Shown here one piece after another: positions 3,685 to 49,660 of a stretch of 50,354 nucleotides of DNA. Origin of the DNA: an uncultured Bacilli bacterium (GTDB lineage: Bacteria; Bacillota_I; Bacilli_A; RF39; UBA660); NCBI GenBank assembly GCA_947627435.1, contig CANQWB010000005.1, positions 1-50,354 on the forward strand, in the 5' to 3' direction. Both the position numbers and the translations under genes were made by a program. Below the pieces are notes generated by a model. It searched no databases. It had not been told where the DNA came from and saw only the letters and a list, made by a program, of their open reading frames with translations. Positions within the stretch are counted from its first letter, which is position 1, and every line of letters begins with the position of its first letter.

Positions 3685-4029
3685 ATGAAAAAAGGATTTA
3701 CTTTGTTAGAATTATTGGGTGTGATTGTATTATTAGGATTGCTGGTATTGATTTCATATCCAGTTGTGATAGAACAAGTGGAAAAGAAACAAAAAGAAGT
3801 AGATAATGCACGATTAGAATTAATATATAGTGGGGCAGATACCTATATAAAAGAAAATGTAGAAGAATATCCTTATCGCATAGGAAGTCAATATTGTATA
3901 TCATTAGATACTTTAGTTAGTGACAATAAAATTGCAATTGACATTTCTGATATCACACAAAAAGGTGTGCAAGTAAATATGGGAAGTAATCATAATTATA
4001 CTTATCGATTGATTGAACAATGTAAGTAA
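3685..4029 (+). CDS. Small type IV pilin / ComGC-like pseudopilin (prepilin N-terminal cleavage/methylation motif)
   Basis: The N-terminus MKKGFTLLELLGVIVLLGLLVLI matches the class III signal (G|FTLxE plus a hydrophobic helix). 114 aa. AAGGTGA RBS. Confidence 0.8.
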   Translation: MKKGFTLLELLGVIVLLGLLVLISYPVVIEQVEKKQKEVDNARLELIYSGADTYIKENVEEYPYRIGSQYCISLDTLVSDNKIAIDISDITQKGVQVNMGSNHNYTYRLIEQCK

Positions 4030-4070
4030 GAGGGGTTTCCATTTTCAAAAAAATATGCTATAATGAAATT

Positions 4071-4236
4071 ACCAGAAAGTGGTCGATAGAAAAACCTACT
4101 AATTTATGACATTGGGAATCTAATTCGAGTTGGTGTTGAATACTTATGTTTACATAAGAATCCTAAAAACTTTGATGTGATGCCCACCTGGGAGATCAGG
4201 TTTTGTCATTGTTGCCACTTTCTGGCTTTTTTTTTT
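4071..4236 (+). ncRNA. Candidate stand-alone structured sRNA, rod-like with an internal bubble (possibly 6S RNA)
   Basis: Extended -10 TGcTATAAT lies at 4056..4064. 5' CCAGAAAGTGG (4072..4082) pairs with CCACTTTCTGG (4215..4225), followed by T10. Inner helices are AAAACCT/AGGTTTT and TGGG/CCCA, with an apical hairpin CTTATG-TTTA-CATAAG. There is no coding potential. Confidence 0.45.
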
Positions 4237-9227: not shown

Positions 9228-9414
9228 AAAATATAACGATTGATGTTATTTTGAAATGTACAGAATCTAGAATGAAAAAAGTATAAAATTTATTCATGTA
9301 AAGTATGATAAAGAATCTTGCAATCAAGATTCTTTTTTGTTATAATTGAGATGTCAAATAAATCATAGAATAGTTTGTAAGTAGGAGATATTTTTGTATT
9401 TGCTATTTGTAAAC

Positions 9415-9423
9415 GGGGGGGGG
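9415..9423 (+). repeat. Homopolymeric G9 tract (followed by TAACCCTC and T7)
   Basis: Counted directly. The partner copy has G10 and T6. Confidence 0.95.
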
Positions 9424-9439
9424 TAACCCTCTTTTTTTA

Positions 9440-9482
9440 TTGTCTTGCAAAAGGAAATAAAATATAGTACACTGATAGTGTA
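9440..9482 (+). promoter_or_regulatory. Promoter plus inverted-repeat operator of modular pilin gene 1
   Basis: TTGTCT (9440..9445), 17 nt, TATAGT (9463..9468). A perfect inverted repeat TACACT-GAT-AGTGTA (9468..9482) overlaps the -10/TSS. All of this is conserved at 42191..42233. Confidence 0.55.
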
Positions 9483-9535: not shown

Positions 9536-11059
9536 ATGAAGAAAAAAGGATTTACATTAATAGAATTATTGGCGGTAATTGTAATACTCGCAATTATTGC
9601 ACTAATTGCAACGCCAATGATTATGGGCGTAATAGAAAATGCAAGAAAGAAAGCAGCAATTCAATCAGTGAATGGCTTATTAGAAGCAGGAGAACAATAT
9701 CAAGTAGAATCTATGATGGATGGAGCAAGAGAAACTGAAATCGATTTAACTGGTGATACTTTAGATATAAAAGGAAGTAAACCAGATAGTGGAGAACTCA
9801 TCTATGATAGTTTAGGAAATATGAGTATTATAGCAAAATACGGAAAATACTGTATCGAAAAGAAGTTTTTAGATGAAGAACCAACCATAGTCACAAGAGA
9901 AGAATGTGAGATGAAAGCATCAGAAAAAGAAAATATAACAACAAAAATATATGGAATAAAAAGAGATATCAATACAAGTGAAACAACATGGGAAAGAATT
10001 GAAGATGCAGAAGAATTAGAAGCAAATGCCATCAAAAGTGAAAGTGAATTAGAAACTGGTGTAAGAAATGACTTTGATGAAATCTATCCATGGAGTGATA
10101 TAGAGACATATACATATGATGTAGAGAAAAAAGAAGTGACTAGTTGGTATAATGATAATCCAGAAGGATTTGAATTTGATGGAAGTAAAGGAGAAGTACT
10201 AACATATATACCAACATTTTATTATAAAAGATATCAAGAAGATGGATATGAATATATTTTAATAAGTAATAAAAATTTAGAGGGATATACAAGAAGTGAT
10301 GAATTTTCAATAGGAAGATATACGATGTCAGGAGATAGCAACGCTATTCATAGTAAAAGTGGTGAAACTCCATTGGTAAAAATAACAATTACACAATTTA
10401 GAGACTATGCAAGAAAGTTAGGTAGTGAATTCAGTCAATTAGATTATCATTATTTTATAATCCAATTATTATATTTAGTAGAATATGCAGATTATAACTC
10501 ACAAGAAAAGTTAGGATTATCAAATACAAATAATACTGTAACCATTACAAGTGGAGGCTGTGATGAATTAGGAATGAAATCTGGTACTTTAAATAATGAT
10601 GGAAAACATTCCATGATTTACAGAGGAATAGAAGATATTTATGGAAACGTATTTCAATTTGTAGATGGAATGAATATTAAAAGTGGAGTAACATACATAT
10701 GTTATGATCCAAATCAATATAAAATTGGTACATTTGATGGATATTATCAGAAATTAGGTTATGTAAATACAACTGATGGAGGATATATCAAAAAACTAGG
10801 ATATGATGCTACCAATTCATTAATTGCACTACCAATAGAAGTAGGAGGTAGTACAAATACTTACATAACGGATTACGGCGAACCATATTTAGGTACAACA
10901 ACCCCTTGCGAGTCAGAAACTGGATGCATTCCTTCGGTCGGGGGAGCTGGTTTTGGTGGTGGGTCCAATAAACAAGCTGGTTTTTGGTATTGGAGATTTT
11001 TTAATTCTTCCTCTGGGCTTAGTAATGACCTTGGATCCCGCCTTATCAAATATCAATAA
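9536..11059 (+). CDS. Modular type IV pilin-like protein: prepilin N-terminus plus large C-terminal module (divergent FGE-sulfatase / C-type-lectin-like suspected)
   Basis: Class III signal in MKKKGFTLIELLAVIVILAIIALIATP. The C-terminal module has RGIEDIYGNVFQFVDG (compare the GNVWEW motif of SUMF1/FGE domains) and a terminal ..GSRLIKYQ. The start was set at ATG 9536, 8 nt after AGGAG. Confidence 0.7.
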   Translation: MKKKGFTLIELLAVIVILAIIALIATPMIMGVIENARKKAAIQSVNGLLEAGEQYQVESMMDGARETEIDLTGDTLDIKGSKPDSGELIYDSLGNMSIIAKYGKYCIEKKFLDEEPTIVTREECEMKASEKENITTKIYGIKRDINTSETTWERIEDAEELEANAIKSESELETGVRNDFDEIYPWSDIETYTYDVEKKEVTSWYNDNPEGFEFDGSKGEVLTYIPTFYYKRYQEDGYEYILISNKNLEGYTRSDEFSIGRYTMSGDSNAIHSKSGETPLVKITITQFRDYARKLGSEFSQLDYHYFIIQLLYLVEYADYNSQEKLGLSNTNNTVTITSGGCDELGMKSGTLNNDGKHSMIYRGIEDIYGNVFQFVDGMNIKSGVTYICYDPNQYKIGTFDGYYQKLGYVNTTDGGYIKKLGYDATNSLIALPIEVGGSTNTYITDYGEPYLGTTTPCESETGCIPSVGGAGFGGGSNKQAGFWYWRFFNSSSGLSNDLGSRLIKYQ

Positions 11060-23746: not shown

Positions 23747-24802
23747 ATGAAACATGAGGATAATTGGAATTTCTATTATACCTTAGCCAAACAATTTTAT
23801 GAACAATATCATCATTTAAATATTCCATATAATTATGAAGTAACGGTTGAAGATCAAATATATAAATTAGGGGTATGGATTATTAATCAACGTAGTGCTT
23901 ATAATGGTACGATATCAACCGTATTGACAGATAATCGTATTGAAAAATTGAATCAAATTGGAATGATATGGAATCTTCATGATTATCATTGGAATTTTTA
24001 TTATGAATTGGCGAAACAATTTTATGAGCAATATCATCATTTAAATATTCCATATAATTATGAAGTAACGATTAAAGATCAAATATATAAATTAGGGGCA
24101 TGGATTATTAATCAACGTAGTGCTTATAGTGGTACGGTACCTACCATGTTGACAAATCAGTGTATTGAAAAATTAAATCAAATTGGAATGATATGGAATC
24201 TGCATGATTATCACTGGGATTTTTATTATGAATTGGCGAAACAATTTTATGAACAATATCATCATTTAAATATTCCACATAATTATGAAGTAACGATCGA
24301 AGATCAAGTATATAAATTAGGGGTATGGATCCGTAATCAACGTAATGTTTACAGTGGTACGGTATCAACAGTGCTGTCAGATAAACGTATTGAAAAATTA
24401 AATCAAATTGGAATGATATGGAATTTTTATGATTGTCACTGGGATTTTTATTATGAATTGACGAAACAATTTTATGAACAATATCATCATTTGAATATTC
24501 CATATAATTATGAAGTAACGATTGAAGGTCAAATCCACAAATTAGGGGTATGGCTTTATAGGCAACGGATTCAATATCGTGATGGACATCTTTTAAAACA
24601 TCGAATTGAACAATTAAACCAAATTCAAAAGGATTGGGATAAAGTGATTAAATCTACAGCAACAATCATTACGAAACAAACAAGTATGAAATTGAATCAT
24701 CAATTGAACAAAGTGCTATTGAAGTTTAATCCAGATGAGATATTTCATGATATACAGGATGTCAAGAATGTAGAAAAAGCTTTTGTAAAAAAATTAAAAT
24801 AA
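23747..24802 (+). CDS. Protein made of four tandem helicase-associated (HA) domain-like repeats, with no helicase core
   Basis: A 75-aa unit, W(N/D)FYYxLAKQFYEQYHHLNIPxNYEVT..DQIYKLGxWIxNQR....G.....L...RIEKLNQIGMIW, occurs four times. This W..x..F....GH..VP..../LG.W...QR pattern is the HA-domain signature. Confidence 0.65.
   Translation: MKHEDNWNFYYTLAKQFYEQYHHLNIPYNYEVTVEDQIYKLGVWIINQRSAYNGTISTVLTDNRIEKLNQIGMIWNLHDYHWNFYYELAKQFYEQYHHLNIPYNYEVTIKDQIYKLGAWIINQRSAYSGTVPTMLTNQCIEKLNQIGMIWNLHDYHWDFYYELAKQFYEQYHHLNIPHNYEVTIEDQVYKLGVWIRNQRNVYSGTVSTVLSDKRIEKLNQIGMIWNFYDCHWDFYYELTKQFYEQYHHLNIPYNYEVTIEGQIHKLGVWLYRQRIQYRDGHLLKHRIEQLNQIQKDWDKVIKSTATIITKQTSMKLNHQLNKVLLKFNPDEIFHDIQDVKNVEKAFVKKLK
23765..24664 (+). 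repeat. 4 x 225-bp in-frame tandem repeat (the last copy more diverged)
   Basis: The unit-initial TGG codons sit at 23765, 23990, 24215 and 24440, an exact 225-bp period. Long identical DNA stretches are shared between units. Confidence 0.9.
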
Positions 24803-31308: not shown

Positions 31309-31389
31309 AATCTAAAAAAAAGATTCTTTTTTTATTTTCAAAAGGGATTTTCATTTTTATATTATATGTTAAAGATAAGGAGGAAAATT

Positions 31390-34300
31390 ATGCATAAAAA
31401 AATCATAAAAAGTTTGATTATATTTATTGGTATTCTATTGCTTGGCTTTCATTCTGAAATTGTGAAAGCACAAGCTACAAATGATTATTTTTACAATGGA
31501 AATTATATTTCGAATACTTATGTCAAGAAAGTCAAAAGTGATGGTACAGAAAGATGGGAAACCGCTATTATTTTAAAAAGATCCGACGGTTTATTTGCAT
31601 ACTGTCTTCAACCATTTTTAGATTTTAAGGAAGGAAATATTCAAGTAGCACATGATAGTGACTATGCTTTAGTAACCCATATGACACAAGAACAGTGGAA
31701 TCGTGTTTCACTATTATCATATTATGGATATGGTTATGGGACGCATAAAGATGATAAATGGTATATTATTACACAGATGATGATTTGGCAAACAGTAGAT
31801 CCAACTGGTGATTATTTTTTCACAAAGACTTTGAATGGAACTCGTATTACACGTTACGAAGATGAAATGGCTGAATTAGACCATTTAGTATCCAATCATA
31901 GTGTAATACCAAGTTTTAGTGGAACCCATCATACACTTTCCATTGGGTCATCTCTAACACTTACAGACCAAAATGGAGTACTTTCGGAATACTCTATGAT
32001 ATCAAGATCGAATGCATTTATTACAAAGGATGAAAATAGTTTGCATATTACGGGAACAGAAGTAGGAAATTATACGGTAGAACTCGTTAAAAATGCTACT
32101 TATTATAATGCCCCACCAATTGTCTATGTGGATAGTGAAGGGCAAGATATGTTGGTTGCAGGTAATTATTCACCAATTTATACTCATTTTTCAGTACAAG
32201 TGGTTGGTGGAAGAATTCAACTGACGAAAGTGGATAATGAAACCAATGCGACAACTGCTCAAGGAGAGGCTACTTTAGTAGGGGCTGTTTATCATGTATT
32301 TGATTCTAAAAATAATGTAGTTGCACAACTTACTATTGATGAAAATAAAACAGCAATTACAGACATACTACCCTTTGGAGAATATACAATTCGTGAAGTA
32401 TCTAGTAGTACAGGCTATTATCTAGATGGTACGGTTTATTCTGTTACAGTTGATTCTACTGCTACCAAAAATGTAATGGTCAAAGAACAGGTCATCAAAG
32501 GAAGAATTCAACTCACAAAAGTAGATAGTGAAACAAACCAATGCAAGGCACAAGGAGAAGCAACTTTGGTAGGAGCGAAATATGGAATTTATGACTCGCA
32601 AAATCGTCTTGTCGATACTTTGACCATTGGAAGTGATTGTCAAGCAACTTCAAAATTATTACCTTATGGAAATTATACAATAAAGGAACTTACAACATCT
32701 ACAGGTTATAAAATAGATGTCAATGTTTATTCTGCACAGATTACAAGTGATCAAACGGTAACCGTTCTATCAAAAGAATCTGTCATTAAAGGAAGAATTC
32801 AACTGACAAAAGTAGATAGTGAAACAAACCAATGCAAGGCGCAAGGAGAAGCAACTTTAGTAGGAGCAAAATATGGAATTTATGACTCGCAAAATCGTCT
32901 TGTCGATACTTTGACTATCGGAAATGATTGTCAAGCAACTTCAAAGTTATTACCTTATGGAAATTATACCATTCGCGAACTCAAAAATAGTCAGGGATAT
33001 TATATCAATACTGAAATTTATTTTACCAAGGTGGAAAACGAAGAAGTTTATTCTATGACTGTTACGGAAGATGTCATTCAAAATGATTTTGTATTCTATA
33101 AATTTTATGGAAATTTGGCAACTGGCTTTATTTATGCCGAACCAGCTGCTGTATTTGAAATTTTCAATTGGAAAAATGAACGTATGGAAACTTTCCAAAC
33201 CGATAGCAATGGTTATGCGAAAGTCACATTACCTTATGGAAAATATCTCGTCAAACAAATATCAGGTTTATCTGATTATAAAATGATGCAACCATTTTCC
33301 ATTGATGTAAATGAAACGACGGCATTAACACAAGTCAATTATATAAAAAATGGACCAATTACAGCGCGACTCAAATTAATCAAAAGGGATTTTGAAACGA
33401 AAGAAATCATTCCGATGGCGGGTGCCAAATTTAAAATAAAAGACATTAAGACAAATCAATATGTTTGTTTTACAACCAATCAAGTGATTTGTGAGTTTGA
33501 AACAGATGAACAAGGAATTATGATTACACCACTTCCTTTGTTTGGAGGGGATTATATCATTGAAGAAATGCAAGCTCCAGATGGATATCTATTGTCTACA
33601 GAACCTGTTCCGTTTTCTATAAAAGAAAATACAAGCGTAATAGAAGATTCTGTTTATGGCTCTATTATAGAAGTTGTGTTTGAAAATCAAGCAGTAAAAG
33701 GAGTAGTAGAAATTCAAAAAATAGGGGAGCAAGTTGTGATAGAAGATGGTCGTTTTACTTATCAGGAAGTTCCACTTTCTCATGTGAAATTTGGTCTATA
33801 CGATGTTTTTGAAAATCTAATTGGCATCTATGTTACAGATTTTAATGGTTACGTAAAAATAGAAAATTTAAAATTAGGAAAATATTTCTTAAAAGAGTTA
33901 GAAACGGCAGATGCATATCTTTTAGACCCTGAAATATATGCATTTGAATTAAAATATCAAGATCAACAAACGCCGATTGTGTATCAACAATTGCGACTCA
34001 AAAATTATTTGAAAAAAGGAACTCTCGAGTTTATGAAAAAAGATATTGATACAGGTGAAGTAATACCAAATGTAACAATAGAAATTTATACAGAAGAGAA
34101 TGCACTTATTTTTTCAGGTACTACAGATAGCAATGGAATGATCAGACTTCCACATTTATGGGTTGGACGATTCTATATCATTGAAACAGAGCCAATGACG
34201 GGCTATCAATTTAGTAATGATAAAATCTATTTTGAAATCAAAGAAAATGATGAAGAAGTCAAAGTCGAAATGTCAAATGAAAAAATAAAAGGAACTCTGT

Positions 34301-34677
34301 CATTTACAAAGATAGATGCCACGACAAAAGAAGTTTTACCAAATGTTTGGATTGAAATATATAATGCCAAAACCAATACACTAGTTTGTTCTCAAAAAAC
34401 AGATGAAAAGGGCCAAATTGTCATTCATGATTTAGAATATGGAGATTATTATCTATTAGAAAAAGAAGCACCAACTGGTTATACTTTGTATCAAAATAAA
34501 ATCTATTTTGAAATCAAAGAAAATGGTGAAGAAGTCAAAGTTGAAATGTCAAATGAGAAAATAGTGGAAGTACCCGATACAGCGATACATACGCGTTCTT
34601 TCCTTTCTATTCTTGGTAGTTTTTGCTTTTGTATTGGACTTGGATGTATTCGATATGCGAAAAAAACCATATCATAA
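31390..34677 (+). CDS. Cell-wall-anchored adhesin: N-terminal thioester domain (TED) plus multiple Cna-B/SpaA-like (prealbumin-fold) repeats, with C-terminal VPDTA sorting signal
   Basis: Signal peptide MHKKIIKSLIIFIGILLLGF. Candidate thioester Cys in FAYCLQP and Gln in ITQMMIWQ (TQxxIW). Repeated GRIQLTKVDSETN...LPYGNYTI(K/R)E...GY modules. The C-terminus is VPDTA, then a hydrophobic helix, then RYAKK. The start was set at ATG 31390 after AGGAGG. Confidence 0.8.
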   Translation: MHKKIIKSLIIFIGILLLGFHSEIVKAQATNDYFYNGNYISNTYVKKVKSDGTERWETAIILKRSDGLFAYCLQPFLDFKEGNIQVAHDSDYALVTHMTQEQWNRVSLLSYYGYGYGTHKDDKWYIITQMMIWQTVDPTGDYFFTKTLNGTRITRYEDEMAELDHLVSNHSVIPSFSGTHHTLSIGSSLTLTDQNGVLSEYSMISRSNAFITKDENSLHITGTEVGNYTVELVKNATYYNAPPIVYVDSEGQDMLVAGNYSPIYTHFSVQVVGGRIQLTKVDNETNATTAQGEATLVGAVYHVFDSKNNVVAQLTIDENKTAITDILPFGEYTIREVSSSTGYYLDGTVYSVTVDSTATKNVMVKEQVIKGRIQLTKVDSETNQCKAQGEATLVGAKYGIYDSQNRLVDTLTIGSDCQATSKLLPYGNYTIKELTTSTGYKIDVNVYSAQITSDQTVTVLSKESVIKGRIQLTKVDSETNQCKAQGEATLVGAKYGIYDSQNRLVDTLTIGNDCQATSKLLPYGNYTIRELKNSQGYYINTEIYFTKVENEEVYSMTVTEDVIQNDFVFYKFYGNLATGFIYAEPAAVFEIFNWKNERMETFQTDSNGYAKVTLPYGKYLVKQISGLSDYKMMQPFSIDVNETTALTQVNYIKNGPITARLKLIKRDFETKEIIPMAGAKFKIKDIKTNQYVCFTTNQVICEFETDEQGIMITPLPLFGGDYIIEEMQAPDGYLLSTEPVPFSIKENTSVIEDSVYGSIIEVVFENQAVKGVVEIQKIGEQVVIEDGRFTYQEVPLSHVKFGLYDVFENLIGIYVTDFNGYVKIENLKLGKYFLKELETADAYLLDPEIYAFELKYQDQQTPIVYQQLRLKNYLKKGTLEFMKKDIDTGEVIPNVTIEIYTEENALIFSGTTDSNGMIRLPHLWVGRFYIIETEPMTGYQFSNDKIYFEIKENDEEVKVEMSNEKIKGTLSFTKIDATTKEVLPNVWIEIYNAKTNTLVCSQKTDEKGQIVIHDLEYGDYYLLEKEAPTGYTLYQNKIYFEIKENGEEVKVEMSNEKIVEVPDTAIHTRSFLSILGSFCFCIGLGCIRYAKKTIS
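32209..33081 (+). repeat. 3 x 291-bp in-frame tandem repeat inside the adhesin (copies 2 and 3 nearly identical)
   Basis: GGAAGAATTCAACT starts at 32209, 32500 and 32791. A second 276-bp pair lies near 34221/34497. Confidence 0.9.
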
Positions 34678-40365: not shown

Positions 40366-41160
40366 ATGGCAAGGTATTGTTTGAATATACAGGATGGTTA
40401 TTCCAATCATTTTTATGTACCTATGGGACGTGGTAAGGAACTGGCACGTGAAAAAGCAGAGTTGTATGAAATTGATTTAATTACAACGACTTTAGGAGAA
40501 AATGATTTTATTGACAAGTTAAAGGAATTACATATTGCACCTATGCAATTTGATTGGAACTTCGTAGAAGGTTCTGTGCAATATATAGTCAATCAAGAGG
40601 TTCACTGTTTACCACTGATATTTGAACGAGATCCTTTATTATTAAAAATAATTCAAGTGCATAATAAATATCGTTATCATTTGGGTATGAGTGAAGCACA
40701 ACTTATCCATAAGATTACAGAACCAGGAGCACAATTGCCATATGATTTAATTGATATGTTACATTCTATTATCCACTATCGTGATGATATATTACAATTG
40801 GTATCTCAAAATAAAGAACTTTTGAATGATCCAAATTTATCTAAAAAATTAAAAGAACTCATATATGTATGGATGCAATGTAATACTTATGATGAAAAAA
40901 GAGAATACGAACATGATCTTTTGAGGCAGATGTTATCTTATATTAATTTACGTAGATTAAAAGCCATGGAATATGGGATTCATATGTATCAAGCGATTGT
41001 AGATATACCACAAGTATCAAAAAATAATCTAACCCAACCATATGGTTTTCCAGAAAAGGATGATTCCGTTGATCCAGATGAATATGCTTTTTTAACAGAA
41101 GAAGAGTTAGCTCAAATGTATGGTGAAGTAGAAGAGGATGAAAAATCACATGGAAGATAA
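40366..41160 (+). CDS. Hypothetical protein (264 aa, acidic C-terminus)
   Basis: Good RBS (AGGTGA). No motif recognised by eye. Confidence 0.5.
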   Translation: MARYCLNIQDGYSNHFYVPMGRGKELAREKAELYEIDLITTTLGENDFIDKLKELHIAPMQFDWNFVEGSVQYIVNQEVHCLPLIFERDPLLLKIIQVHNKYRYHLGMSEAQLIHKITEPGAQLPYDLIDMLHSIIHYRDDILQLVSQNKELLNDPNLSKKLKELIYVWMQCNTYDEKREYEHDLLRQMLSYINLRRLKAMEYGIHMYQAIVDIPQVSKNNLTQPYGFPEKDDSVDPDEYAFLTEEELAQMYGEVEEDEKSHGR

Positions 41161-42043
41161 ATATTTACATTTATTTTTAGATTTTTTGCAACGAAAGAAT
41201 CAGTCTAATTATACTCTGATATCTTACCGAAATGATTTAATCCATTTCTTCCATTTTTTAAATACAGAATCTATAGCATTAAAAAATACTGATTACAAAG
41301 TTATTCGTAATTATTTGGCTTATTTATATTCAAAAAATTATTCGAAACGTACGATTGCAAGACATATTAGTTGTTTACGTAGTTTTTATAAATATTTAAT
41401 GCAAGAACATATCATTTCTAAAAATCCTATGAAATTAATATCCAATCCTAAATTGGATCATACTTTACCTAAATTTTTATATTTTCAGGAATTGGAATCA
41501 TTATTATCCATTCCAGATCAAAGTACACCATTTGGATTGCGTGATGCAGTTATTTTAGAATTATTATATTCTACAGGTGTTCGTGTGAGTGAACTTGTAT
41601 GTATCCAGATAAAAGATATTGATTTTTATGATAAAAAAATAAAGGTATTTGGAAAAGGCAGTAAAGAACGATATGTTTTGTATGGTACTCAATTACAAGT
41701 ATTACTCCAAAAATATCTTTCAGGTTCAAGAAATGAATTGTTGAAAGGAAAACAACATGATTTTCTTTTTCCCAATCATTTAGGGAATCCTCTTACGACT
41801 GCGGGTATTCGTACTATTTTAAATAAAGTGATACAACAAGGTGCTTTAAAGTTTCATATTAGCCCCCATGTACTTAGACATACTTTTGCGACACATATGT
41901 TAGATGAAGGCGCAGATTTAAAAAGTGTGCAAGAGTTGTTAGGCCACGAAAATTTATCGACAACACAAATTTATACGCATGTATCCAATGAACATTTAAG
42001 ACAAGTGTATTTGAGTGCTCATCCTAGAGCAAATCATAAATAA
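41138..42043 (+). CDS. xerC: Tyrosine recombinase XerC/XerD family (CodV-like)
   Basis: N-terminal SAM-like domain. The catalytic region reads GVRVSEL...HVLRHTFATHML..GADLKSVQELLGHENLSTTQIYTHV. The start is ambiguous (ATG 41138 or 41150). Confidence 0.85.
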   Translation: MKNHMEDKYLHLFLDFLQRKNQSNYTLISYRNDLIHFFHFLNTESIALKNTDYKVIRNYLAYLYSKNYSKRTIARHISCLRSFYKYLMQEHIISKNPMKLISNPKLDHTLPKFLYFQELESLLSIPDQSTPFGLRDAVILELLYSTGVRVSELVCIQIKDIDFYDKKIKVFGKGSKERYVLYGTQLQVLLQKYLSGSRNELLKGKQHDFLFPNHLGNPLTTAGIRTILNKVIQQGALKFHISPHVLRHTFATHMLDEGADLKSVQELLGHENLSTTQIYTHVSNEHLRQVYLSAHPRANHK

Positions 42044-42165
42044 TTATGTAAAGTATAGAGGATTATTGTTGCAAATAAAGAATAAATATGATAATATGAA
42101 AATGTCAAATAAAATCATAGAATAGTTTACGGATGCATAAGATTTCAAGTATGCTATTTGTAAAC

Positions 42166-42175
42166 GGGGGGGGGG
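42166..42175 (+). repeat. Homopolymeric G10 tract (followed by TAACCCTC and T6)
   Basis: Counted directly. Confidence 0.95.
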
Positions 42176-42190
42176 TAACCCTCTTTTTTA

Positions 42191-42233
42191 TTGTCTTGAA
42201 AAGAAAAATAAAATATAGTACACTGATAGTGTA
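42191..42233 (+). promoter_or_regulatory. Promoter plus inverted-repeat operator of modular pilin gene 2
   Basis: TTGTCT (42191..42196), 17 nt, TATAGT (42214..42219). Inverted repeat TACACT-GAT-AGTGTA at 42219..42233. Confidence 0.55.
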
Positions 42234-42286
42234 TATAAGAATAAAAGAATGAGAAAAGTATCAAAATAGGAGTAGGAGTGATGTAT

Positions 42287-44041
42287 ATGAAGAAAAAAGG
42301 ATTTACACTAATTGAATTATTGGCGGTAATCGTAATACTAGCAATAGTTGCATTAATTGCAACCCCAATGATTATGGGAGTGATTGAGAAAGCCAGAAAA
42401 GGAGCTGCAATACAATCTGTCAATGGACTTTTAGAAGCGGCAGAACAATATCAAATAGAGATGATGCTAGAAAAAAATCCAACAAATACGATAGATTTAA
42501 CAAGTAATACCTTAAATGTAAAGGGAGGTAAACCAACAAGTGGAATGTTGATAATTGATACATTAGGAAATATGAGTATTATAGCAAAATATGGAAATTA
42601 TTGTATTGAAAAGAAATTTGATGAGATAAGCCCACAAATAGTTGAAAAAGAAGAATGTACAATGGAGAAAAGTGAATTAGAAAGTGCAATTAATTATAAA
42701 GAGGCTATTTTAAATGGAGCATATCCAGAATTGAAAGGTAATTTAATACCAGTAACTATAGATAGTGATGGAATAGTAAAAAAGGCAGATTTAAAAACAG
42801 TATGGTACTCATATGAGAAAAAACAATGGGCCAATGCGGTGATACTAAAAAGTGGAGAAACAATAGGAGAAGATGGGATAATATCAGAAGAAAAGATACA
42901 ACAATATTATGTATGGATCCCAAGATATAGATATCAATTATGGAATGTAAATAGTGAAAGAAAATATCCAAATGGAACAGAGGAACCAAGTGCTATACAA
43001 ATTGTATTTGAAGGAAAAAATACAGAAGTATCTAATGGTGATGCGAATGGAGAATGGTTAACACATCCAGCATTTACTTCATTTGATACCAATGGAATAT
43101 GGGTAGGAAAATTTGAAATTAGTTATGATGAAAATACATTTACAAATTCAACTACATTTTTAACAAGTAATCCTAATACTACAGTAGCAACAGACTCATC
43201 AAAAATATTAATTAAACCAAATGTAAGAAGTTTAACGAATAAATCAGTTAGTGAATTTTATACTTTAACAAAAGAAATGAATAGTGCATTAAATAGTCAT
43301 ATGATAAAAAATATGGAATGGGGAGCGATAGCATATTTAACTTATTCTAACTATGGAAAATGTACCAATACTTCTTGTGAGGAAGTATACATTAATAATG
43401 TAAATACTGGATATTACAAATCTTCTCCAACATTTTCCGGACAATGGTCTTATGGACCAACTGTAACAGGTTGTAGTGCTACAAGCACAAGCGAAGATGT
43501 AGCATATAACTTAAGTAGTTGTGCATCAGGATATGCATGGAATGACGTATCTAACAAAGCCAGTACAACTGGAAATATTACTGGTATTTATGACATGTCA
43601 GGTGGTTCTTATGAATTCTTTATGAGTGTATTAGCAGATAACAATAATAAGCCAATGAGTGGTACATCTGAAACACAAAACTCTGGTTTTAATGGAACTT
43701 ATGGTGATGGAAGTGGAATTCAAACAAAAGGTATTGATTTTCCTTTAGATGTTAGATACTATGATGTGTATAAAGGAAATGGAAAAATGAATGATGATAC
43801 ATGGTGGGATCATTATCAAAGCTCATATTTAGGAGATGCGGTTAAAGAAATGGTGGATGCAACCAATTATAGTTCTAGATTGTGGTTTAATGATGCAAAT
43901 TATTTTATTGTATCTAGTAAACCATGGTTACTTCGTGGCGGTGGTTATGATAGTTACACTGGTGGGGGTATCTTATATATGCAAAGAGATCAAGGACACT
44001 TACGTACGCATGTTTCTACTCGTGTTATACTTTCATTTTAA
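42287..44041 (+). CDS. Modular type IV pilin-like protein 2: same pilin module, different FGE-sulfatase / C-type-lectin-like C-terminal module
   Basis: The N-terminus MKKKGFTLIELLAVIVILAIVALIATP... is conserved with 9536..11059 for about 130 aa. The C-terminal module has HPAFT...GIWVGKFE, NMEWGAIAYL, GIYDMSGGSYEF (compare GxYDMSGNVWEW of SUMF1/FGE domains) and LLRGGGY...STRVIL. The start was set at ATG 42287. Confidence 0.7.
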   Translation: MKKKGFTLIELLAVIVILAIVALIATPMIMGVIEKARKGAAIQSVNGLLEAAEQYQIEMMLEKNPTNTIDLTSNTLNVKGGKPTSGMLIIDTLGNMSIIAKYGNYCIEKKFDEISPQIVEKEECTMEKSELESAINYKEAILNGAYPELKGNLIPVTIDSDGIVKKADLKTVWYSYEKKQWANAVILKSGETIGEDGIISEEKIQQYYVWIPRYRYQLWNVNSERKYPNGTEEPSAIQIVFEGKNTEVSNGDANGEWLTHPAFTSFDTNGIWVGKFEISYDENTFTNSTTFLTSNPNTTVATDSSKILIKPNVRSLTNKSVSEFYTLTKEMNSALNSHMIKNMEWGAIAYLTYSNYGKCTNTSCEEVYINNVNTGYYKSSPTFSGQWSYGPTVTGCSATSTSEDVAYNLSSCASGYAWNDVSNKASTTGNITGIYDMSGGSYEFFMSVLADNNNKPMSGTSETQNSGFNGTYGDGSGIQTKGIDFPLDVRYYDVYKGNGKMNDDTWWDHYQSSYLGDAVKEMVDATNYSSRLWFNDANYFIVSSKPWLLRGGGYDSYTGGGILYMQRDQGHLRTHVSTRVILSF

Positions 44042-49535: not shown

Positions 49536-49558
49536 TATATTGCACTTAAAAGTGTGAA

Positions 49559-49660
49559 AATGTTTCTCGCTTCCGGGTGGCTAGCGAGTAATAAATAATC
49601 CCGGTCGACAATGTTTCTCGCTTCCGGGTGGCTAGCGAGTAATAAATGATCCCGGTTGAA
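49559..49660 (+). ncRNA. Candidate type III antitoxin RNA: 2 (plus about 0.1) tandem 51-nt repeats with hairpin/pseudoknot potential
   Basis: Units 49559..49609 and 49610..49660 are 48/51 identical. Each has stem CTCGCT/AGCGAG, and loop CCGGG is complementary to the downstream CCCGG. There is no ORF. The repeats sit between a promoter and a terminator, upstream of the toxin-like ORF. Confidence 0.7.

Follow-up and report, generated by a model that had tools for sequence, protein, structure and literature searches.

Two genes for type IV pilin-like proteins lie on the forward strand of a 50,354-nt stretch of DNA from an uncultured Bacilli bacterium (assembly GCA_947627435.1, contig CANQWB010000005.1, positions 1 to 50,354; hereafter the window), and each is preceded by a long run of G followed shortly by a run of T. 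The two homopolymers belong to a repeated element, termed the leader below, that runs from a predicted promoter to the T run. At the first copy, the order is AAAC, G9 (9415-9423), TAACCCTC (9424-9431), T7 (9432-9438), A and TTGTCT; at the second, it is AAAC, G10 (42166-42175), TAACCCTC (42176-42183), T6 (42184-42189), A and TTGTCT. These are the sole G runs of at least 8 nt in the window, which has 31% G+C and for which shuffled sequences predict 0.19 such runs. Across ~200 kb comprising the window and related loci, all G or C runs of at least 7 nt lie inside the leader, except at one unrelated locus (L009). The original prediction had described the G9/T7 and G10/T6 pair, and its sequence is confirmed here; as both states recur in independent assemblies, they are not one-off assembly errors of the window.

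Both sites fall within a duplicated unit of ~300 nt (86% identity), which spans from ~9296 and ~42047, respectively, into the first ~400 nt of the two pilin-like genes. The upstream part of this unit consists of: a conserved block, ATGTCAAATAAA(A)TCATAGAATAGTTT; a middle block of ~23 nt that is nearly wholly different between the copies; and a third, conserved block, TGCTATTTGTAAAC-Gn-TAACCCTC-Tn. The features assigned to the two copies and their surroundings are as follows.

9310-9335, forward strand: AU-rich terminator hairpin belonging to the upstream metallophosphoesterase gene (stem of 11 pairs and then a T run; gene assigned by Pfam)
9318-9346, forward strand: predicted leader promoter P1, copy 1, TTGCAA-17-TATAAT with a TG extension (10/12 consensus match)
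9353-9372, forward strand: unpaired 5' leader tail, copy 1, with the conserved AAUCAUAGAAUA at 9361-9372 (alignments A2 and A3; folds)
9373-9414, forward strand: hairpin 1, copy 1, 12 bp with several G·U pairs (folds; pairing in the alignment)
9415-9438, forward strand: predicted terminator hairpin, copy 1 (terminator scan; folds)
9440-9468, forward strand: doubtful promoter-like site, copy 1, TTGTCT-17-TATAGT (9/12 match, at chance level)
9536-11059, forward strand: pilin-like gene 1, 507 aa, with an N-terminal methylation motif and a large C-terminal module (start as given by the gene caller)
42069-42097, forward strand: predicted leader promoter P1, copy 2, TTGCAA (42069-42074)-17-TAATAT (42092-42097) (read from the sequence)
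42105-42124, forward strand: unpaired 5' leader tail, copy 2 (alignment; folds)
42125-42165, forward strand: hairpin 1, copy 2 (folds; pairing in the alignment)
42166-42189, forward strand: predicted terminator hairpin, copy 2 (terminator scan; folds)
42191-42219, forward strand: doubtful promoter-like site, copy 2, TTGTCT-17-TATAGT (promoter scan)
42287-44041, forward strand: pilin-like gene 2, 584 aa, with an N-terminal methylation motif and a C-terminal module unlike that of gene 1

Beyond the window, 21 further copies of the leader are present in metagenome-assembled genomes (MAGs) and in metagenomes of rabbit-gut and other gut origin. When one genome per species was scanned, 13 true copies were returned from five MAGs, which are labelled uncultured Bacilli, Bacillales or 'Clostridia' and held in records named MGBC, SRR-derived bins and 'Lapin', along with one unrelated match (L009). 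A metagenome scan, with a pattern anchored on the 5' block and CTATTTGTAAAC and with the G run deliberately not required, added 8 copies, all from one assembly. The covariance model R1, built from 19 copies (effective sequence number 2.37), gives 69-102 bits on 21 copies, including the two of the window, and 32-37 bits on two divergent sugar-transferase copies; run over the window, it returns no leader copy beyond the two. Several copies can occupy one genome (at least 6 in CANSPQ01 and 4 in CAJTIX01). Searches of Rfam 15, both at gathering thresholds and at E <= 10, give nothing relevant at the site, including the cyclic di-GMP (c-di-GMP) models I and II; the best overlapping match is rteR, at 15.8 bits against a threshold of 72 bits (E = 7.5). 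Within a clade of uncultured gut Bacilli with ~30% G+C, the leader occurs as a multi-copy cis element. Consistent with this copy number, words from the conserved blocks of the element reach depths of 90-460 in rabbit-gut runs, as compared to ~13 in the unique flanks.

Two sets of matches were discarded. The 19 pattern matches in viral contigs are all chance, as none fits R1. The L009 match, in a Clostridia MAG, has no covariance-model match and flanks unlike those of the family, and ~1 chance match was estimated for the scan. Separately, the L009 region (2490-2620, 39% G+C) holds a 24-codon open reading frame (ORF; MYNANYPVFVNGGGALYPRFNVMR) with an in-frame G10, its own ribosome-binding site (RBS) and a strong promoter, and it could encode a frame-variable small peptide. 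Assemblies also tend to break at the leader: L010-L012, L016, L018, L020, L028 and L029 end at it or start just after it. The pilin N-terminal coding region (9536-9620 and 42287-42370) reaches a unitig depth of ~1000, as opposed to ~13 in unique flanks, which indicates that such pilin genes form a very large family in the rabbit metagenome.

The 5' end of the leader is marked by a predicted promoter. The -10-like TATAAT at 9341-9346, singled out in the original prediction, proved to be part of the promoter-like P1; in copy 2, P1 is in register with that of copy 1, at an equal distance to the conserved block, and has a weaker -10. In most copies, a good promoter (TTGACA or TTGCAA, 17 nt, TATAAT or TATACT, often with TG) lies 12-30 nt 5' of AATCATA, and the P1 equivalents of most relatives match the consensus as well as or better than P1 itself. 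The terminator hairpin of the upstream gene (AAAGAATCTTGCAATCAAGATTCTTTTTTGTTATAAT) carries the P1 -35 of copy 1 (TTGCAA) in its loop, an overlap of terminator and promoter that is also kept in L013 (around 1880-1925) and in metagenome loose ends.

The sequence that would be transcribed from P1 has a uniform predicted architecture. In 19/19 aligned copies, the minimum-energy fold comprises: a 20-nt unpaired tail, with the conserved RNA sequence AAUCAUARAAUA; hairpin 1; and an abutting G-run hairpin. This agrees with the earlier description of a ~75-nt conserved segment that begins after the -10 and ends with the terminator, a layout that recurs in all 19 aligned relatives. The fold is strand-specific, with a mean energy of -22.8 kcal/mol in sense and -8.3 kcal/mol in antisense, a gap that arises because several pairs are G·U. 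In copy 1, hairpin 1 is formed by a 5' arm (GUUUGUAAGUAG, 9373-9384), a variable tip (9385-9402) and a 3' arm (CUAUUUGUAAAC, 9403-9414). The 5' arm of copy 2 (GUUUACGGAUGCAUA) is unlike that of copy 1, yet it still pairs with an identical 3' arm. Across the alignment, 93.9% of hairpin 1 cells are paired, as compared to 37-47% in slid-partner controls, and a standard pair is retained in 16/16 counted one-sided changes (G to A opposite U, C to U opposite G). The length of the hairpin 1 tip differs by up to 17 nt across copies.

The G run itself has the position and partners expected for the 5' arm of an intrinsic terminator. Copy 1 reads G9 (9415-9423), a UAA loop, CCCUC (9427-9431) and U7 (9432-9438), and copy 2 reads G10 (42166-42175), UAA, CCCUC (42179-42183) and U6 (42184-42189), the latter also in the independent assembly L032. 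On the transcribed strand, both copies therefore have the G/C stem-loop and adjoining U tract that define intrinsic terminators, and a terminator scan makes 7 overlapping calls at each, with 0.1-0.2 expected. The general form in the family is a G run, a 3-6-nt loop, CCCUC or CCCCU, and then 5-8 U; the hairpin is predicted in 19/19 aligned members, and the antisense strand folds far less well. In these folds, the G run pairs with CCCUC and the first U's of the tail, and surplus G's can take G·U pairs. The stem is predicted to persist with CCCUC, CCCCU or CCCCC as its 3' arm. One pair of the stem shows a two-sided change, in a part where the alignment is poor. The suggestion in the original prediction that Gn/CCCUC and the U run form a short intrinsic terminator, which was offered there as a secondary idea, fits all of these findings.

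The terminator arm is variable in length and in purity. Pure G runs in the family are G6 (1 copy), G7 (2), G9 (8), G10 (7) and G11 (1), with a mode of 9-10. Among the 8 copies found without requiring a G run, 4 are pure, 3 are interrupted and 1 is degenerate. The interrupted tracts are GAGGGGG, GATGGGGG and GGGAGGGGA (L018, L021 and L022); all three are predicted to fold with CCCUC, and the interrupting A's of L021 and L022 are able to pair with U's. The predicted hairpin energy is -6.0 kcal/mol with G5, -9.4 with G8 and -11.9 with G13, or ~0.5 kcal/mol per added G between G8 and G13. This near-flat profile results from the pairing of added G's with more U's. A sharp ON/OFF switch acting through the terminator is accordingly unlikely, given the almost flat energy from G8 to G13 and the existence of interrupted tracts. 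The degenerate copy (L017, 10695-10790) keeps the tail and hairpin 1, and has lost the terminator, with AGGGGGAATGGCAC in its place; the gene that follows it encodes a C-5 cytosine DNA methylase.

The placement of the leader relative to genes is consistent with a regulatory role in cis. Every copy with a callable next gene is co-oriented with that gene, so that the element occupies the site of a 5' leader: between a promoter and an ORF, in sense, and in front of several different genes. Most of these encode proteins with a prepilin N-terminal methylation motif and diverse C-terminal modules. The others encode: a Bac_transf sugar transferase (L001, L008); a DUF4190 membrane protein (L003); a 299-aa protein with a weak Spo0A_C match (L002); and a 396-aa protein of no assigned family (L014, L015). 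Two layouts are found. In the direct layout (10 copies), the start codon lies 37-57 nt past GTAAAC and the RBS is right behind the U run, which leaves no room there for another promoter. In the spaced layout (the window copies, L013 and the L005/L010-12 group), ~100 nt separate the terminator from the gene, and this spacer contains a promoter-like match and apparent decayed remnants of an RBS and start.

The promoter-like match in the spacer is the site that the original prediction took for the pilin promoter, with TTGTCT as the -35 and TATAGT as the -10. It matches the consensus at 9/12 positions, a level of agreement that does not exceed chance: with DNA this rich in A and T, 5.0 +/- 2.5 sites of such quality are expected and 8 are found. 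The description of the tract as lying just upstream of the -35 of the pilin genes also does not hold as a conserved context, since 10 relatives have no room for a promoter. In some metagenome variants of copy 2, a 77-nt block (42197-42273) comprising the promoter-like site and most of the 5' untranslated region is missing, and TTGTCT is joined straight to the RBS with AA or GA between; the block behaves as an optional module.

Variation in tract length was followed at the copy-1 locus, which was recovered from four independent assemblies of one study by exact-protein look-ups of flanking genes. Three carry G9/T7, as in the window, and one (ERZ27249266) carries G10/T7; the extra G is its sole difference from the window over 3782 nt. 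A copy-1-like allele with G10 is also present on a contig from another study. Copy 2 is G10/T6 both in the window and in ERZ27249022; the contigs that carry pilin 2 begin after the tract, and exact-protein look-ups with pilin 1 and with the 301-aa form of the recombinase encoded upstream of copy 2 gave no match. In Logan unitigs (k=31), variants with +1 G and -1 G, and likewise for T, exist and are not assignable to a locus, as the element is multi-copy. No other site of the locus varies as much as the tract, and each paralogue has a reproducible modal length. The tract is mutable, or else error-prone in sequencing. The proposal that the tract is hypermutable stands in so far as its length differs within otherwise identical DNA (three G9 and one G10 at copy 1) and ranges from 6 to 11 among paralogues; the expression switch attached to that proposal is unproven.

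Together, these observations make it probable, in our judgement, that the G run is one arm of the terminator that ends a promoter-proximal cis leader or attenuator, and that this arm is slippage-prone and structurally tolerant. In the mechanism we propose, a sigma-70-type promoter (TTGCAA-17-TATAAT) would start a transcript of ~85 nt that comprises: an A-rich unpaired tail; a 12-bp, G·U-rich hairpin with a freely varying tip; and the G-run terminator hairpin. Located in sense before cell-surface genes (type IV pilin-like proteins, an exopolysaccharide priming sugar transferase and a small membrane protein), the leader would cause RNA polymerase to halt at the G/CU hairpin, and to read into the gene when some factor permits. 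This factor could be a protein or small-molecule partner, as suggested by the conservation of the tail and, in sequence, of the G·U-rich helix. At the window copies, the ~100 nt between the terminator and the pilin start may supply a second promoter. Surplus G's would wobble-pair (G·U) with the U tail, so that the tract could drift between 6 and 11 by replication slippage while the hairpin survives. Tract length would then at most tune termination gradually, and would not turn it on and off.

Several points weigh against this proposal. Transcription from P1, termination at the hairpin, regulated read-through and an effect of tract length are each inferred from sequence. A search for RNA runs containing the window locus returned none, and one for the mouse-MAG locus yielded just unrelated runs that bear the same label. 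No antiterminator was detected: inspection of the alignments revealed neither a C/U-rich partner for the G run nor a purine partner of more than 4 bp for CCCUC, which leaves the regulated part of the model without structural support. It could be that the hairpin terminates constitutively, or that the RNA is a small RNA (sRNA) in its own right. Two-sided covariation is not seen in hairpin 1 in the 19-copy alignment, with its effective sequence number of 2.37; this is attributable to search patterns that both fixed the 3' arm and to the narrowness of the clade. That narrowness also means that conservation may partly reflect recent duplication or gene conversion. The ~100-nt spacer of the window copies, with its promoter-like site, raises the prospect that the leader may not control the pilin gene there. 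Finally, the G9/G10 difference rests on one case, from an Illumina assembly at ~9.5x, and Illumina sequencing is prone to errors in long G tracts (PMC9187656).

One subgroup has an additional helix. In L004, L016 and L020, the tail AAAUAAAUC(A/G)UAAAA pairs over 15-16 bp with a post-terminator segment, UUUUAUGGUUU(A/G)UUU (z -3.2 to -4.2), and the differences between members keep the pairing; in read-through transcripts, the entire leader would be closed by this helix, which is strong in this subgroup alone and absent in the window copies.

The first alternative to an attenuator is the one favored in the original prediction, namely a DNA contingency locus in which slippage in the G and T runs alters the spacing or phasing to the TTGTCT -35 and its UP region, separately for each pilin paralogue. 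We regard it as unlikely, although the tract has several of the expected properties: a run of at least 8 (G9, G10), with 9-11 G being within the classic slippage range; a same-locus polymorphism in close genomes, in one case, where G9 versus G10 is the sole change in 3.8 kb; and lengths of 6-11 among paralogues. Precedents for such control are the Bordetella fim C-stretch, the Moraxella catarrhalis uspA1 G tract and the Helicobacter pylori sabA T tract, the last of which adjoins the -35 (PMC4081817). Set against this, the G run is kept in 10 members without promoter room after the T run; TTGTCT-17-TATAGT is at chance level; and the sequences largely agree on the length at each site, with G9 at copy 1 in 3/4 assemblies and the window and G10 at copy 2 in both sequences. 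The variable length of the hairpin 1 loop further implies that the distance from P1 to downstream sites is unconstrained. The tract is outside any conserved ORF and not between a -35 and a -10.

The evidence on spacing is mixed. Three related pairs hold their total length (24/24 in the window, 25/25 in L004/L016 and 27/27 in L014/L015), as the contingency reading would have it. Preservation of total spacing, which the original prediction had noted between the window copies, is not general: L024 is G10/T7, unlike the other copy-1 sequences; L010 and L011 are G10/T5 and G9/T5; L013 is one base shorter than the window; and L020 differs in total from L004. Compensation of +1 G by -1 T is unproven and probably coincidental.

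The known tracts differ from the one described here in where they act. In Bordetella pertussis, a C-stretch in the fim2, fim3 and fimX promoters sets the activator-to-promoter spacing (PMC1891110); as with the leader, a G/C homopolymer lies 5' of paralogous fimbrial subunit genes and its length varies by paralogue and strain. The fim tract is inside the promoter, whereas the tract of the leader is in a putatively transcribed terminator arm, and many copies have no promoter after it. A G(n) tract 5' of the M. catarrhalis uspA1 ORF, likewise upstream of a surface (adhesin) gene, has a proven effect and gives graded, high-to-low transcriptional output (PMC7302503); unlike the leader, it is a single Gram-negative locus outside any terminator hairpin or repeated leader. 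Bifidobacterium breve, a gut commensal, has G10-12 tracts tied to sortase-pilus genes, with length heterogeneity within populations (PMC9187656). Those tracts are intragenic and act by frameshift, whereas that of the leader is non-coding.

A second alternative, which we also rate as improbable and to a like degree, is that the element is a stand-alone sRNA gene whose ~85-nt product acts in trans, for example through the hairpin 1 tip, and that the surface genes are merely adjacent. A complete promoter and terminator unit, a variable segment between invariant ones and many copies per genome (as in CANSPQ01 and CAJTIX01) would all suit an sRNA, as would the window copies, which lie ~100 nt from the pilin start with a possible separate promoter between. 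Against it, every copy is co-oriented with and near the next gene, and 10 copies have an RBS within about 20-40 nt and no other visible promoter, the arrangement of a 5' leader. No complementarity between the variable tip and any target is established.

A third proposal, that the transcribed G tract drives R-loop or G-structure formation and gene conversion among pilin paralogues, draws on Neisseria pilE, where a four-run G-quadruplex (G4) motif with a cis-acting sRNA drives recombination. The two systems share a promoter that transcribes, or here is predicted to transcribe, a G-rich element just 5' of a pilin gene, and many pilin copies. Mosaic loci with a shared leader and N-terminus, different C-terminal modules, the optional 77-nt block and the RBS/start remnants are in line with such a process, and so is the depth of ~1000x at the pilin N-terminus versus ~13x in unique sequence. 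We consider it very improbable: in contrast to the four-run pilE motif, the leader has one run, which pairs with the following C/U arm as a hairpin, and a lone G9-11 run cannot make an intramolecular quadruplex; the element also precedes non-pilin genes; the window copies form direct repeats at a distance of 32.7 kb, with rpoB/rpoC between them, so that crossover exchange would be lethal; and no recombination junctions are seen at the tract. Equally remote is attenuation or frame switching by a leader peptide, a mini-ORF M-(Y-L)-L-F-V-N-G-G-G through the G run with which tract length would place the ribosome stop relative to the terminator: copy 1 does have AGGAG, 8 nt and TTG TAT TTG CTA TTT GTA AAC GGG GGG GGG TAA, and a same-frame ORF exists in copy 2 and 8 other members, but in 5 members no ORF spans the tract, the frame differs in others (MLAICKRGG...), most members have TAG as the in-frame codon that precedes CTA, and neither start codons nor RBSs are conserved, so that a conserved peptide through the G run is rejected.

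The attenuator reading has closer parallels among leader RNAs. Firmicute 5' leaders with Rho-independent terminator platforms (riboswitch, T-box and protein-dependent) have the same order of promoter, structured leader, hairpin with U tract, RBS and gene; they also share with the element a sense-strand-specific fold and the use of one leader type over several operons. The element differs from them in having no Rfam 15 match and no antiterminator alternative that could be found. The arm of its terminator consists purely of G and forms part of its pairs, by G·U, with the element's own U tail, whereas the ordinary terminators of the window are AU-rich (e.g., 9310-9335). In Clostridioides difficile, pilA1 lies behind a c-di-GMP-II riboswitch leader (PMC6200980). 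This is likewise a type IV pilin gene behind a leader RNA in a Gram-positive gut bacterium, with a similar regulon theme of pili, surface and polysaccharide. The element described here matches neither the c-di-GMP-I nor the -II model and is far simpler, with a tail and one hairpin.

On the sequence evidence, the element is a candidate for a new leader motif, whose poly-G terminator arm is unusual and polymorphic and whose function is predicted. A stronger joint claim is tentative, and we think it rather doubtful: that this is an undescribed leader class with a hypermutable G-homopolymer terminator arm, through which each paralogous surface gene would hold its own heritable, slippage-adjustable attenuator setting, such that the repeat switch would act inside an intrinsic terminator and not in an ORF or a promoter spacer. 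If the leader does act as an attenuator, then pili, exopolysaccharide and small membrane proteins form a regulon in a gut clade known from metagenomes alone, and the leader also represents a new RNA motif with no Rfam entry. If the G tract's length tunes termination, the terminator stem becomes a new place for contingency repeats, and this tuning could explain how many pilin paralogues in one genome are individually expressed. Even if neither holds, the case illustrates that a homopolymer pair beside an apparent -35 can be the terminator arm of a repeated promoter-leader cassette, and such cassettes also break short-read assemblies exactly at this point.

Further observations concern the genes around the two copies. 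The C-terminal modules of both window pilins go unrecognized by Pfam. That of pilin 1 (9980-10300; motif NDFD.IYPW.DI.(S/T)Y.YD ... IPxFYY(K/R)R), which was also compared with the L004 pilin, recurs in L006, where the carrier, a secreted protein, has an ordinary signal-anchor in place of the prepilin N-terminus; this indicates that modules are swapped between pilin and non-pilin carriers. A third pilin-like gene (114 aa, 3685-4029) has an N_methyl motif and lies just 5' of the 6S RNA gene (4067-4231), without the leader element. The gene directly 5' of copy 2 (41150-42043) encodes a tyrosine recombinase (Phage_integrase and SAM-like N domain) and lies two genes downstream of topA, with a 264-aa ORF between. 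This order resembles topA-trmFO-codV of B. subtilis, by analogy with which the recombinase is probably a housekeeping XerC/CodV-like protein. A role as a shufflon-type or pilin-shuffling enzyme was set aside in view of the topA cluster order and of the arrangement of the copies as direct repeats across essential genes.

Other repeats are present elsewhere in the window. In an intergenic segment (49556-49657), a G+C-rich unit of 51 nt, GAAAATGTTTCTCGCTTCCGGGTGGCTAGCGAGTAATAAATAATCCCGGTC, is present twice in tandem at 94% identity, each copy with the inverted repeat CTCGCT...AGCGAG. A 1103-aa adhesin with SpaA repeats and a thioester domain is encoded at 31366-34677 and has internal repeats of 291 nt, and a 351-aa protein encoded at 23747-24802 is made up of four 'helicase-associated' (HA) repeats of 225 nt each.

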